From positions 64,295 through 128,294 of the forward strand of contig DATKXK010000011.1 in the NCBI GenBank assembly GCA_035529075.1: a DNA stretch of 64,000 nt. The letters are read 5' to 3'. Both the position numbers and the translations under genes were made by a program. The stretch is from Acidobacteriota bacterium (GTDB lineage: Bacteria; Zixibacteria; MSB-5A5; GN15; FEB-12). Under the pieces are notes generated by a model. The model worked only from the letters and a program-made list of their open reading frames with translations, made no database searches and was not told the origin of the DNA. Below, piece after piece: positions 2,829-36,378 of this stretch (positions within the stretch are counted from its first letter, which is position 1; every line of letters begins with the position of its first letter).

Positions 2829-2900
2829 GGGGGTGTAGCTCAGTGGTAGAGCATCTGCCTTTTAAGCAGGTTGTCGATGGTTCGATCCCATCCACCCTCA
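2829..2900 (+). tRNA. tRNA-Lys (anticodon TTT)
   Basis: Hand-folded cloverleaf: acceptor GGGGGTG/CACCCTC, D-arm GCTC-AGTGGTA-GAGC, anticodon arm TCTGC-CTTTTAA-GCAGG, T-arm GATGG-TTCGATC-CCATC. No encoded CCA. Confidence 0.9.
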
Positions 2901-2920
2901 TAAAAGTCTCTTGGCTAAAT

Positions 2921-2993
<73 letters not shown>

Positions 2994-34091: not shown

Positions 34092-34223
34092 CTACTTTTC
34101 AGCGGGTACTAGGAAACAGAAGCATTTGGCGTTCTTCGGATAAATCCGTTTGCCGCTACGTACAATGTAACGACAGAACACCAGCTTCATGCCACGTGGC
34201 ACTTTAATTGGCGTCTTCGCCAT
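34092..34223 (-). CDS. 43-aa basic small protein (not in ORF track)
   Basis: AAGGAGGAGGTG, 7 nt, then ATG. Translation: MAKTPIKVPRGMKLVFCRYIVRSGKRIYPKNAKCFCFLVPAEK. Confidence 0.45.
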   Translation of the reverse strand: MAKTPIKVPRGMKLVFCRYIVRSGKRIYPKNAKCFCFLVPAEK

Positions 34224-34709
34224 AGGCTCTCACCTCCTCCTTTGTTTAAACTCCGGCACCTCGTCCCTCGGTGGGAAGCCAAAAGCCCCTCACCGAGGGG
34301 AGGGCGGGAGTCTAAGCTGAAGGAGTGAAAGCCAAACGGGGCGCCGCATTGCGCCCAGCAGCCTCTCAGGAAATATAGTGGACATCTTGGGTGATGCAAG
34401 GTTATTCTCTGCCTGCTTCCTGCCTTCATAGCGCCAGTATGATATCTCCAATGCTCCAACGGTGTTTGGTCACGCCAGCACCCACATCGCCAGTAGGTCT
34501 TAGAATCACCCAAATCCCAGCAAGTTTGAATCACAGGAAATGCAGGACAACCGCATACCCAGCGTTTTCGATTGGTTTCGAAAACCGGTTGGTCAGGTGG
34601 TTAAATCGACGCATGCCCTTACGTGCCGCGAAGCGAGAAGCCCTTGAGTCGTCGCGCCTTTTTTCATAATTCTCTTGCCATAAGCAGCATAATGACCGAT
34701 ATTTGTTGT

Positions 34710-34781
34710 AGCGGGCGGCCGGACTCGAACCGGCATTTTCTGGATGGGAGTCCCAACGGTTTACCGTTAACCTACGCCCGC
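34710..34781 (-). tRNA. tRNA-Gly-like with a non-canonical anticodon loop (ACUCCCA)
   Basis: Acceptor GCGGGCG/CGCCCGC plus U73, D-arm GGTT-AACGGTA-AACC, T-arm GCCGG-TTCGAGT-CCGGC. Anticodon arm TTGGG-ACTCCCA-TCCAG reads TCC by position, with C33 and C37. Confidence 0.7.
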
Positions 34782-34788
34782 TCTGTAC

Positions 34789-34859
34789 TGGTGGAGCCGG
34801 CCGGGATTGAACCGGCGATTATCAGGTGCAAACCCTGAGATCGTCACCAGACCGGCCCC
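34789..34859 (-). tRNA. tRNA-Ala-like element (G3:U70, A73, encoded CCA) with an aberrant D region and loop GUUUGCA
   Basis: Acceptor GGGGCCG/CGGCTCC, T-arm GCCGG-TTCAATC-CCGGC, anticodon arm TCAGG-GTTTGCA-CCTGA. Only 12 nt lie where the D-arm should be. Confidence 0.55.
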
Positions 34860-34874
34860 ATGCACCACAAGTTA

Positions 34875-34901
34875 GGCTCAAGCTCTCCATGAGCTTGAGC
34901 C
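34875..34901 (-). terminator. Strong hairpin after the 34906 gene (no U-tract)
   Basis: GGCTCAAGCTC-atgga-GAGCTTGAGCC, 11-bp perfect stem, 4 nt after the stop codon. Confidence 0.5.
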
Positions 34902-34905
34902 TCGT

Positions 34906-35601
34906 TTATTCCTGCTCCTCATCTGCGGTCTCTCTTTTCTTCAAATAGAGAATGAGCGTCCACACGGCTTTCTGCTCTTCCTCTGTCATCTGGTCCGGGT
35001 CCAGGATGTCAATCAAAACGTCCTTAGCAGAAGGTTCCGCAAGCGATTGATCATACCTATTTCCGTTGGCCGGTTGTGATGGTCGCATCGGCTTGGTGCC
35101 TTTTCGCGGAGACCTCCGTTTCGTCGTTCTACGCTCACGCGACATTCTCTTGAGATACGGTGACAGCTCGGCACCTGCTTCTTTCGCGAGTGCCACGAAA
35201 AACGACCGGCATTTAGCCACCGTGTCTCCGGTAGCGCCTGCTTCTTGGAACCCATTGTTGAGTTGATCTGGCGTGGTCTGGGCGATGTCAATTCCGCTCT
35301 CACCAAGGAAACTATACGTCCGTTCGAACAGTTCTCTGTACTGCGCCCTCCTACTATCAGCATCCGCTTGCACCAGACTCCTAAGCTCCTCCGACGGCAC
35401 ACCCGCTTCGTCGATGAGTCTCATGAAACGGAGCGCTCCCATCAAGTAGGAGCGCATTCCACCTGACATGGATGGCATAACGCTTGGATCGATGCGTGAC
35501 GGCATTGCTTGCTTTAGGACATTTAAGAAGTTAACGAATGTCCGCCAAGGAACGTACGGCGGTAGGGCCTTCTTCACTCGCTCTCCGTTTGGCATTACCA
35601 T
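34906..35601 (-). CDS. Hypothetical protein (possibly DUF5343-like; family name from memory)
   Basis: AAAGGAG RBS 7 nt before the ATG; 231 aa. N-terminal PPYVPWRTFVNFLNVL...RIDPS, basic central tract, acidic tail. Lower GC than the flanks. Confidence 0.7.
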   Translation of the reverse strand: MVMPNGERVKKALPPYVPWRTFVNFLNVLKQAMPSRIDPSVMPSMSGGMRSYLMGALRFMRLIDEAGVPSEELRSLVQADADSRRAQYRELFERTYSFLGESGIDIAQTTPDQLNNGFQEAGATGDTVAKCRSFFVALAKEAGAELSPYLKRMSRERRTTKRRSPRKGTKPMRPSQPANGNRYDQSLAEPSAKDVLIDILDPDQMTEEEQKAVWTLILYLKKRETADEEQE

Positions 35602-36378
35602 AACGCGGCTCCTTTACCCTGTGGTTTATACTTGTCAGCCAAATTATGCGCTATGGGCTCTGCGGAGTCAAGTAAAAAGTTGTTCGAAAACCTAGGAATC
35701 TTAGCCCTATCTTAGTATGCGCCGTCTATTCCGGACAGAAGAAGCCGTAGGATAGCAATAGATAGATAGGCTGCCGCGAATATTGGCTGTGCTACTAGAT
35801 TCCCGCAGATCCTTGATTAAGCCGTTGCAATCGCGTATCGTATTGCTGCCCAGTAGGTTGCGTGATTCGATAAATCGATCGTCAGTTGCGGCTAATCGGG
35901 ATTCGCAAATGTTACTGATTCCAAGCGAATGTAAGCTATGATGTTACGCAAGTAGAGGCAGCAGACGGATTAGAGCAGACCGGCGGAAAAGCCGGCCTTG
36001 GAGTTCACTTTTTGCGGTTTTCTGGTCGTTGCTAGTGCTGCTGTCTTTGCCGCAGCAGGGCAGCGCCTGTCGGTAGGGCTTTTGGCCTTGGGCTTGTGTG
36101 GCTTTGATACTCCGGGGGGCAGGATTAGGGGTCGCAGAGTACTCGGGAGCGGTGTGGCTTGACGTGGCCAATAAGAAAGGTGCGGAGTTGAACTGGGTTC
36201 GGCGGGTTATTTCGGAGGTAACGGTGTCAGGGGAAACCTGCAAGTCAGGCAATGTGCTAGTCGGCTTAGGGAACTGCTCACCGTGAGCAGCTACGTTGGT
36301 GCGCGAACGGTTGCAGGCTACCGGCATTTTGCGTACCTTCTTCGTAAAGACAGGAATCAGCCAAAGGGCGAGCGCACT

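Follow-up and report, generated by a model that had tools for sequence, protein, structure and literature searches.

Irregular tRNAs and allo-tRNAs have been known since 2017 and have become a chassis for genetic-code engineering. Here we analyze two tandem tRNA-like genes, designated gene 1 and gene 2, on the minus strand of a 64,000-nucleotide (nt) stretch of a metagenome-assembled genome (MAG) labelled Acidobacteriota (contig DATKXK010000011.1, positions 64,295 to 128,294; hereafter the window), together with the upstream gene, encoding a protein of the DUF5343 family, and the downstream transposase remnant that accompany them. Mukai et al. (Nucleic Acids Research, NAR, 2017; PMC5389517) describe allo-tRNAs of 8/4 or 9/3 architecture whose variable arm is long and whose D stem ends in a tetraloop, carrying 35 different anticodons of which UAU is the commonest. 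Together with 'polycistrons of irregular tRNAs' (tRNA0/1/2), these are known from Acidobacteria and other soil bacteria, recovered from acidobacterial metagenomic and metatranscriptomic soil data close to toxin-antitoxin systems and a transposon-related open reading frame (ORF). In the same account, allo-tRNAs with G3:U70 put alanine into protein in E. coli, induction of allo-tRNAs with leucine anticodons (GAG, UAA) resulted in growth arrest and killing, and of six allo-tRNA(UAU) variants two were lethal. The allo-tRNA(UAU) species did not translate. A G-1 tRNA with GGU at positions 34-36 was charged by histidyl-tRNA synthetase (HisRS), probably via GUG at 35-37, and did not decode ACC, and one allo-tRNA(UAU) pseudogene overlaps a transposon ORF (PMC5389517). 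A later review and later papers on allo-tRNAs add no natural function.

Judged by sequence, the window pair is best filed with this irregular/allo-tRNA-like class, described in the 2017 report from soil Acidobacteria (PMC5389517), and the finding is not categorically new because it extends a published class. Like the irregular tRNAs of that report, the pair consists of tandem non-canonical genes on one strand of an Acidobacteriota-labelled MAG; gene 2 presents a D stem closed by a tetraloop and the G3:U70 alanine identity; amino-acid identity is uncoupled from positions 34-36, with the identity triplet at 35-37, as for the GUG of the HisRS-charged tRNA1; and there is a transposon-related association, in the form of an IS1-family remnant in the window and intact copies in relatives. 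Related DUF5343 loci also hold true 8/4 allo-tRNA(UAU) genes. The window pair nevertheless departs from the published architecture, since both genes are 7/5 instead of 8/4 or 9/3 and lack a long variable arm, the D stem of gene 2 has only 3 bp and gene 1 is of glycine type with a fixed CCCA, yielding an Ala-mini and a Gly-CCCA form. Linkage of such RNAs to a DUF5343 gene and an IS1-family transposase was not found in the main text of Mukai et al. (PMC5389517). The upstream protein, the transposase and the published class together provide the decisive context beyond an earlier note on this stretch, which had described the two RNA genes and the displacement of the anticodon core that they share.

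Architecture of the two tRNA-like genes

Gene 1 (34710..34781, minus strand), identified by sequence reading, ARAGORN, the Rfam tRNA model and alignment, is a glycine-identity cloverleaf without an encoded CCA. Its 5' half reads GCGGGCG UA GGUU AACGGUAA AACC G UUGGG ACUCCCA UCCAG on the minus strand and is followed, after UCCAG, by a 3' half reading AAAAU GCCGG UUCGAGU CCGGC CGCCCGC U. The resulting molecule has a Gly-type acceptor in a 7/5 acceptor branch, U73, a normal D arm (GGUU / AACGGUAA / AACC) with GG in the D loop, a variable region of 5 nt, and a canonical T loop, UUCGAGU, above a T stem that retains the pairs G49:C65 and C51:G63. The anomaly lies in the anticodon-like loop, ACUCCCA (34745-34751), which counts 7 nt because its 3' U pairs with G31 (G31-U39 closure). 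Instead of the U33 and purine 37 that the elongator-tRNA rule associates with a 7-nt loop, gene 1 carries C33 and C37, and its cognate glycine triplet, CCC, sits at positions 35-37. Acceptor and body match those of tRNA-Gly(CCC), E. coli glyU, which has the loop UU-CCC-AA; compared with that loop, the U-CCC-A core of gene 1 is pushed one step in the 3' direction. Under the Rfam tRNA model (RF00005) the gene scores 54 bits (E 8e-9) and passes the gathering score of 29 bits, and ARAGORN reports it as 'tRNA-???' with a two-base anticodon, 'cc'.

Gene 2 (34789..34859, minus strand), delimited by its sequence, matches to the ends of the transfer-messenger RNA (tmRNA) model, alignment and a covariance model of our own, is an irregular 7/5 tRNA-like RNA of alanine identity with an encoded CCA, separated from gene 1 by a spacer of 7 nt (34788-34782). 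On the minus strand its 5' half reads GGGGCCG GUC-UGGU-GAC GAUC UCAGG GUUUGCA CCUGA, continued after CCUGA by UAAUC GCCGG UUCAAUC CCGGC CGGCUCC A CCA. The Ala-type features G3:U70, A73 and the encoded CCA are combined with perfect T and anticodon stems and a variable region of 5 nt. In the loop GUUUGCA (34827-34833) of the anticodon-like arm (34822-34838), U33 is present, but G32 and C37 depart from the elongator-tRNA rule, and the cognate alanine triplet, UGC, is again found at 35-37. The D region spans only 12 nt with no U8 connector and, as the earlier note had stated, contains no normal D arm. That description can be refined: the region forms a 3-bp stem with a UGGU tetraloop (GUC-UGGU-GAC, 34843-34852, minus strand), and relatives keep the 3-bp stem and a UGGN tetraloop by covariation, so the short D region is not shapeless. 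All other features that the note had attributed to either gene, including the 7-nt spacer, are present on the minus-strand reading.

Unlike gene 1, gene 2 goes undetected by ARAGORN at default settings and by Rfam at the gathering threshold. Its best permissive Rfam match is to the two ends of the tmRNA model (RF00023), which outscores the tRNA model in clan competition with 37 bits against a gathering score of 47 and has 21 nt of gene 2 in place of 312 model positions; our covariance model of the gene 2-type RNA gives the window copy 81 bits. Gene 2 orthologues from two related loci, L058 and L057 (loci are numbered with the prefix L throughout), obtain 31 and 27 bits with the tmRNA model, both below the gathering score. 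The likeness to the tRNA-like domain of tmRNA, which is the best Rfam match of gene 2 and its orthologues, comprises the GGGG acceptor, G3:U70, A73, CCA, a canonical T arm and a reduced D region containing UCUGG. Gene 2 differs in that 21 nt (a 5-bp hairpin) stand where tmRNA has a pseudoknot and mRNA-like body of ~310 nt, and therefore has no tag reading frame, and in sharing its D hairpin motif with allo-tRNAs instead. We rejected the identification of gene 2 as a tmRNA, given the missing mRNA-like domain and scores of 27-37 bits against the gathering score of 47; ARAGORN finds no tmRNA.

Two canonical tRNA genes in tandem, tRNA-Lys(UUU) and tRNA-Lys(CUU) (2829-2993, plus strand; 72 and 68 bits), serve as internal controls. 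Both have canonical CU-NNN-AA loops that follow the U33/purine-37 rule, and the lineage thus does not generally tolerate odd loops, contrary to one outcome that the note had envisaged. Single-sequence minimum free energy folding failed to yield either cloverleaf, and an inspection by eye for pairing between the loops of gene 1 and gene 2, or between these loops and nearby leaders, found none that was convincing. Because single-sequence folding of the two RNAs beats shuffled sequences only modestly (z -2.7 and -2.1), the case for function rests on comparative data.

Conservation of the pair and its genetic linkage

Orthologous pairs or single genes follow the same upstream DUF5343 gene in at least five other distinct loci, all on metagenomic contigs, one of which belongs to a candidate division Zixibacteria MAG. 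Among these loci, whose DUF5343 homologues are 44-59% identical to the window protein, L001 carries a gene 2-type followed by a gene 1-type RNA, L004 and L058 carry both types, L055 carries both in swapped order (gene 1 then gene 2) and L057 carries the gene 2 type alone; single gene 2-type RNAs also accompany distant DUF5343 homologues in L011, L017, L021 and L030. The gene 2 alignment (n=10 sequences) has 92% of its cells paired and double-sided changes in 13 of 20 pairs, with a covariation score of 0.58 vs 0.16 for shuffled alignments (0/500 reach the observed value) and ~0.10 for slid registers. Against this background of change, G1:C72, G2:C71, G3:U70 and A73 are fixed in all ten sequences while pairs 5-7 vary freely, and the alanine identity set (G1-G4, U70, A73) is held across the orthologues. 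For gene 1 (n=5), 91% of the cells are paired, 11 of 21 pairs are double-changed and 0/500 shuffles reach the score; of the glycine set, G1:C72, G3:C70, U73, C35 and C36 are found in all five sequences and C2:G71 in four (U:A in L058). Nucleotide identity between the window and four relatives amounts to 54-87% for gene 2, 62-75% for gene 1, 54-65% for the ORF and 46-63% for the flanks. Since the RNAs covary and exceed both ORF and flanks in conservation, gene 1 and gene 2 are selected RNAs and not relics, and with 54-87% identity the orthologues are not recent copies of one sequence.

The displaced core is conserved along with the stems. Gene 1 loops read ACUCCCA in the window, CCGCCCA in L001 and CUUCCCA in L058, and extend to 8 nt in L004 (CUUCCCAU) and L055 (CUACCCAU), with CCCA (positions 35-38) fixed in 5/5 and position 34 free. 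In linear alignment they share one architecture of three nt, CCC, A and then U or G. This last base sets the loop size, leaving 7 nt if it pairs with position 31 and 8 nt if it does not. Gene 2 loops (GUUUGCA in the window and L001, GUUUACA in L057, GUUCUCA in L058, GUUAAGA in L004) follow the pattern G-U-U-N-N-(C/G)-A. Overall, U34 and A38 of the displaced U-NNN-A core occur in 7 of the 9 7-nt loops listed, a set that includes UAUGGGA of L024 and UUGGUCG of L018, and the +1 shift is therefore a property of the clade. The argument of the earlier note, that a register shift common to both neighbours speaks against random decay, is borne out by the alignment of orthologous loci that it had called for, in which the shifted loops are retained and the identity sets stay fixed amid covarying neighbouring stem pairs. 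With its threshold relaxed, ARAGORN assigns different registers to different orthologues (Leu-UAA, Val-UAC, Arg-UCU).

Upstream of the pair lies a DUF5343-like ORF of 231 aa (34906..35601, minus strand), a distant member of the family (PF17278) whose own Pfam match is sub-threshold (E 0.036) and whose homologue P0006 exceeds the gathering score. NCBI annotates only 172 aa of it (VMY05_06005); the N-terminal motif PPYV.WRTF (residues 14-22), conserved in all homologues, supports the start that gives 231 aa. We found 93 homologues, and when 1.84 billion representatives were searched with the protein profile, 4486 clusters (50% identity) matched at E up to 1e-3; annotated phages and plasmids, searched with the protein by tblastn, contained no match, and no paper on DUF5343 or on PDC-M34 was found in the literature. 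The AlphaFold2 model, built on an 88-sequence alignment, is confident, with a predicted local distance difference test (pLDDT) score of 88.6. It predicts that residues 10-160 form an all-helical domain to which a small beta hairpin belongs, followed by a putatively disordered Lys/Arg-rich linker (~155-190) and a conserved C-terminal helix. A Foldseek search with this model returned nothing significant in PDB or BFVD.

A sigma-70-like promoter sequence (TTGACT-17-CATAAT, 35643..35671, minus strand), supported by 10/12 consensus matches only, precedes the ORF, and right after its stop codon there is a 12-bp hairpin (34874..34902, minus strand; -22.7 kcal/mol, z -5.0) with no U tract on this strand, a counterpart of which, divergent in sequence, occupies the same place in L001, L004, L011, L055, L057 and L058. 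On the other side of the pair, the motif ATATCGG (34696..34702, minus strand, by direct reading) lies 8 nt past gene 1; it recurs within ~25 nt of the last tRNA-like gene in L001, L055, L057 and L058, with a variant, ATAATCGG, in L004, and precedes the transposase promoter in L055. The decayed IS1-family remnant (34408..34632, minus strand; tblastn 43% identity, E 2e-12) lies 78 nt downstream of gene 1 and contains an in-frame stop; measured against the intact 282-aa gene of L055 it retains residues 206-280 and has lost the N-terminal ~200 codons. The L055 transposase itself matches the NCBIfam IS1 model with E 8e-17, below the cut-off. Terminal inverted repeats were sought around the IS1-like genes and none were found, so we make no claim that a discrete insertion sequence entered at a tRNA hot spot. 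Downstream of the remnant, two hairpins that resemble terminators and have U-rich tails (34286..34356, minus strand) are the probable end of the transcription unit. Because a promoter-like site stands before the ORF, no U-tract terminator precedes the RNAs and terminators appear only at 34356-34286, we infer a single transcript comprising the DUF5343 mRNA and both tRNA-like genes. The cassette forms a GC dip (52% vs ~60%) among chromosomal genes that include purA, lysS, clpC, DAHP synthase and genes of exosortase/exopolysaccharide (EPS) type.

The linkage extends beyond close relatives. A wider survey took in 48 distinct DUF5343-like loci for which downstream sequence was available. There, default ARAGORN detected 10 same-strand tRNA-like genes in 28 kb (600 nt after each DUF5343 gene), compared with 6 in 167 kb elsewhere on both strands, which represents a ~10-fold enrichment downstream of DUF5343 genes. 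When relaxed, manual and covariance-model calls are added, ~20 of the 48 loci carry an irregular tRNA-like element just downstream, and tandem pairs of non-canonical tRNA genes are again found in L001, L004, L018, L055 and L058. The elements are heterogeneous in kind. Besides 7/5 Ala-type minis they include 8/4 allo-tRNA(UAU) genes in L016, L019 and L039, in which the variable arm is long, the anticodon stem has 6 bp, a tetraloop caps the D stem and the loop reads CUUAUAA; a class-II species with anticodon UUA in L015; a pair with GGU and GUC in L018; and others in L024, L053, L059 and L180. The 8/4 acceptor branch of L016 reads GGAGAGCG...GGGG UCCGAUC CCCC CGCUCUCC, and its D-hairpin motif, GUCUGGCGAC, equals that of gene 2 (GUCUGGUGAC) and of L021, with a variant in L019, so that a D motif GUCUGGYGAC is common to gene 2, L016 and L021.

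Mobile context recurs as well, in several states. An IS1-family transposase follows the RNAs in L055/56, in L057 and in L015 (with intact 282-aa homologues in L055 and L057), L013 has the gene in inverted orientation, L014 has it with a frameshift and L053 retains a remnant; in L001 and L004 a transposase gene is missing altogether. IS1595 transposases adjoin L005-8, L180 and the viral contig L098, and the surroundings of L055, with HTH_17, HTH_3 and SLT domains, are typical of an integrated element. A scan of viral contigs with the pattern GGGGNNNGUCUGGUGAC gave 117 matches, nearly all of them due to chance, with L098 as the only credible gene 2 type: this phage-like contig (IMGVR_UViG_3300048998_000250) encodes a gene 2-type Ala mini RNA at 1799-1870 on the minus strand, scoring 42 bits with our own model.

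A proposed mobile RNA-protein cassette and competing explanations

The interpretation that we favour, while giving it somewhat less than an even chance, is that the two RNAs are translation-acting effectors of a selfish, addiction-like or defence-like mobile cassette with the DUF5343 protein as their partner. The proposed cassette would run from the promoter through the DUF5343-like protein, the hairpin, the Ala-type RNA and the Gly-type RNA to the IS1-family transposase. The RNAs would be co-transcribed with the DUF5343 mRNA and released by RNase P and RNase Z, leaving the hairpin as the 3' end of the mRNA. Because the identity elements are fixed while adjacent pairs covary, gene 2 would be expected to be charged by alanyl-tRNA synthetase (AlaRS) and gene 1 by glycyl-tRNA synthetase (GlyRS). 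As the core is one nt 3' of register, with C33 and C37 in gene 1 and G32 and C37 in gene 2, and as gene 2 has only a mini D arm, neither RNA would be an ordinary decoder. This points to effectors on the translation apparatus, which may act through aberrant decoding (missense or +1 frameshift, SufJ/sufD-type) or by taking up factors that bind tRNA. Given its predicted helical domain and Lys/Arg-rich tail, the DUF5343 protein would probably be the partner that binds these RNAs or controls them. That it binds RNA is a conjecture prompted by its basic tail and its linkage to the RNA genes, since the fold matches nothing known. As addiction modules do, the protein-RNA core outlives the transposase, which has decayed in the window and is missing from L001 and L004.

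Known frameshift suppressors offer a parallel for gene 1. The suppressor sufD is a tRNA-Gly(CCC) with an extra C, and SufJ carries a C31.5 insertion. Gene 1 resembles them in its tRNA-Gly(CCC)-type acceptor, again relative to E. coli glyU, and in an extra nt 5' of the U-CCC-A core, and its orthologues in L004 and L055 have true 8-nt loops. Unlike sufD and SufJ, which are laboratory mutants of housekeeping tRNAs, these RNAs are natural, conserved and located on a mobile element, and the window loop has 7 nt, closed by G31-U39. In SufJ, the extra nt lies 5' of the anticodon, positions 33-37 still decode in the A site, and the extra base tilts the stem and provokes a +1 shift (PMC4238358). The 8-nt loops of L004 and L055 are sufD-type, and such behaviour would fit the translation-effector reading.

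Several observations weigh against that reading. Many DUF5343 genes stand without a tRNA-like RNA downstream, namely those at L040-type loci and at the gyrA-linked loci L178 and L179. The L098 RNA directly follows an unrelated 296-aa ORF (by hhalign) beside its IS1595-family transposase and has no DUF5343 neighbour, so the gene 2 RNA type is not strictly tied to DUF5343. The protein has no structural match in PDB or BFVD, its helical domain could equally bind DNA, and its match to the PADLOC model PDC-M34A is weak (E 2e-3 to 2e-6). In the window cassette, the searches turned up neither a recognised toxin-antitoxin domain nor one of a classical toxin or antitoxin. The relatives are all metagenomic, and the sequence is compatible with a reading register at 34-36, at 35-37 or with none.

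A bolder form of the proposal, which we regard as improbable, would make DUF5343-tRNA-like cassettes a widespread, previously unrecognised RNA-protein conflict module for addiction or defence. Its effectors would be aminoacylated, register-shifted 'poison' tRNAs causing missense, nonsense read-through or +1 frameshifting, or jamming ribosome rescue; the DUF5343 protein would be an SmpB-like escort or antidote; and the long forms of the cassette, described below, would add CreT-like mini-ORFs with rare Arg codons in tandem. If the RNAs do perturb translation, they would constitute a new kind of RNA toxin or defence component and a natural source of frameshifting or orthogonal tRNAs. The locus and its relatives provide the search for the role of irregular tRNAs with a genetic frame, comprising a partner protein family with thousands of 50%-identity metagenome clusters and a recurrent transposase, and with a clade-level rule, in which the U-NNN-A core moves one step 3' and Ala or Gly identity is kept. 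Whether such RNAs are decoders, poisons, decoys or processing signals becomes testable with a three-part construct.

The alternative that fares best, unlikely in our view and still a live rival, had been raised as a decoy in the earlier note. It holds that the RNAs take no part in decoding and serve as decoys or sponges: tRNA mimics, charged or not, that would titrate a factor aimed at tRNA-Gly, tRNA-Ala or tmRNA, from a host or a competitor, and so protect the mobile element. The factor might be a nuclease acting on anticodon or acceptor, SmpB/EF-Tu or an enzyme of tRNA modification. The preference of gene 2 and its orthologues for the tmRNA tRNA-like domain (37, 31 and 27 bits) is in line with this idea, except that every one of these scores is below the gathering score. 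The retention of identity elements in RNAs whose loops are unfit for normal decoding would also be expected of a decoy, as would the mobile-element context, and the G-1 tRNA described by Mukai et al. was charged yet not used in translation (PMC5389517). A pure decoy for a binder of the acceptor end, however, would have no need to conserve an anticodon arm of 5 bp and a U-NNN-A core in which the central bases differ between orthologues (UG, UA, CU, AA).

That the RNAs are working tRNAs of the mobile element seems to us less probable than the decoy explanation. Read at 35-37 they would decode GGG (with CCC) and GCA (with UGC), and read at 34-36 they would be recoders, gene 2 inserting Ala at CAA; the odd loop geometry might even permit escape from anticodon nucleases. 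The elements that the ribosome requires are all there (the GG/T-loop pair, 5-bp stems), the U-NNN-A core is intact and merely displaced, and ARAGORN and Rfam take the gene 1 orthologues of L001 and L058 as tRNA-Gly. Loops of the SufJ type bind the A site normally (PMC4238358), and G3:U70 allo-tRNAs translate in E. coli according to the 2017 report, although the HisRS-charged shifted tRNA of that report failed to decode its positional codon (PMC5389517). Also against this reading are the canonical loops of the host tRNAs in the window, the missing normal D arm of gene 2, and the non-Ala triplets that its Ala-identity orthologues carry in either register (UAC, CUC, AAG at 35-37 or UUA, UCU, UAA at 34-36). 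C33 and a pyrimidine at 37 are near-absent among functional elongator tRNAs. The recoding hypothesis of the earlier note, Ala at CAA, is weakened: since the orthologues carry UUA, UCU and UAA at 34-36, gene 2 targets no single codon, and its mini D arm and C37 disfavour an efficient decoder.

Still less probable, in our assessment, is a role as RNA-processing or stability signals, a form of tRNA punctuation in which RNase P and RNase Z would split the DUF5343 mRNA from the transposase mRNA and aminoacylation would be irrelevant. Processing at tRNA shapes has precedents in MALAT1-mascRNA and in mitochondrial transcripts. As in plant-virus tRNA-like structures and MALAT1 mascRNA, a tRNA shape stands right 3' of an mRNA and would leave a structured element at the mRNA 3' end; unlike those eukaryotic or viral cases, the window has two separate, complete genes with bacterial aminoacyl-tRNA synthetase identity sets. 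The RNAs do lie between two ORFs with no U-tract terminator, the conserved hairpin sits exactly at the expected protected 3' end, and order and number vary among loci (gene 2-gene 1, gene 1-gene 2 in L055, gene 2 alone in L057). An acceptor/T minihelix alone would suffice for processing, however, which leaves the fixed G3:U70, A73 and G1-G4, the Gly set, CCCA and the conserved anticodon arms unexplained.

The first hypothesis of the earlier note, non-ribosomal aminoacyl donors for cell-wall, lipid or peptide synthesis, retains very little probability. The RNAs appear chargeable and poor at decoding, and a neighbourhood of exopolysaccharide/exosortase genes lies nearby; the pair itself sits in a low-GC mobile cassette with a DUF5343 protein and an IS1-family remnant, and across phyla such RNAs accompany a DUF5343 gene and a transposase, not envelope genes. 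A domain search found no Fem, MprF, cyclodipeptide synthase (CDPS), L/F-transferase or PEARL-type domain in the 28 window ORFs scanned. The staphylococcal precedent it had cited does not carry over. Non-proteinogenic staphylococcal tRNA-Gly, the substrate of Fem enzymes, lacks G18G19 and has altered T loops and weak EF-Tu T-stem pairs; gene 1 shares its Gly identity and a presumably poor fit for ribosomal decoding, but shows none of these hallmarks, keeping GG (G18G19), the normal T loop UUCGAGU, G49:C65 and C51:G63 with no Fem gene nearby.

Integrative elements often target tRNA and tmRNA genes. Equally remote is the last part of the note's third hypothesis, which we reject, that the RNAs are pseudogenes or integration-site relics in tRNA or tmRNA genes: the frequency of such targets, the decayed neighbouring transposase and the allo-tRNA(UAU) pseudogene overlapping a transposon ORF that Mukai et al. 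describe (PMC5389517) would suit it, but every stem is perfect or wobble-paired with compensatory changes across loci, the RNAs are more conserved than the coding flank, and they lie inside the cassette and not at its border with 5' and 3' halves both present, unlike att duplications.

Additional features of the window and of other DUF5343 loci

Downstream of the terminator-like hairpins, the window encodes a basic ORF of 43 aa (MAKTPIKVPRGMKLVFCRYIVRSGKRIYPKNAKCFCFLVPAEK; 34092..34223, minus strand) with a strong Shine-Dalgarno sequence (GGAGGAGGUGAGAGCCU-AUG), whose membership in the cassette is uncertain and for which no family match was found. Other DUF5343 loci carry small basic ORFs or mini-ORFs where the window has this gene, and at a similar site L005, L028, L029, L032 and L034 encode a different small basic ORF (..HVCAYTRxRKGxxEYVxxHWRSPP). 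Close relatives also have two conserved small genes upstream of the DUF5343 gene (L001 2796-3328, L055 4296-4845, L004 1323-1845), encoding a divergent 80-aa protein and a Lys-rich 93-aa protein of KGG type with a GRLGGLKGGKARA motif; tblastn found neither in the window. The 80-aa, 93-aa and 43-aa proteins and the other small neighbour proteins gave no meaningful Pfam/NCBIfam match, two neighbour proteins having weak sub-threshold DUF matches only.

The region at 6181-33891 of the window resembles an exopolysaccharide/PEP-CTERM-exosortase region and gives no sign of a link to the cassette. Its gene types include a Wzy_C O-antigen ligase-like protein, TPR plus sigma-54 activator, an AMP-binding ligase, DUF3485 (EpsI-like), UDP-glucose/GDP-mannose dehydrogenase, GDP-mannose 4,6-dehydratase and epimerases.

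Long-form DUF5343 loci, in contrast to the short-form cassette of the window, from which the RTG-AGR-AGR motif is absent, contain a mini-ORF between the stop codon and the tRNA-like element, composed of a GGAGG Shine-Dalgarno-like site, a start codon and tandem AGA/AGG (L013 3099-3300; L014 3157-3300; L016 3148-3330; L030 970-1130; L059 1204-1370). The mini-ORF motif is also present in L005 (4790-4810), L029, L021 and L050. Examples are GUG AGA AGA GUA GUA GCC UGA in L016 and AUG AGG AGA UAA in L030, and RTG-AGR-AGR occurs in 8 of 46 loci at 0.76 per kb, vs 0.022 per kb elsewhere. In their consecutive rare codons these mini-ORFs look similar to the tRNA-sequestering CreT RNA toxins, mini-ORFs in which rare codons, AUA or AGA/AGG, stand one after another (PMC8501985).

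In L040, L043, L046 and L051, which lack a downstream tRNA-like RNA, the DUF5343-like gene is followed by a convergent gene and then by a canonical tRNA-Ser(GCU) on the opposite strand, at a fixed distance ~1.4-1.7 kb downstream; this tRNA-Ser(GCU) spot of the L040 subgroup may be a conserved chromosomal site.

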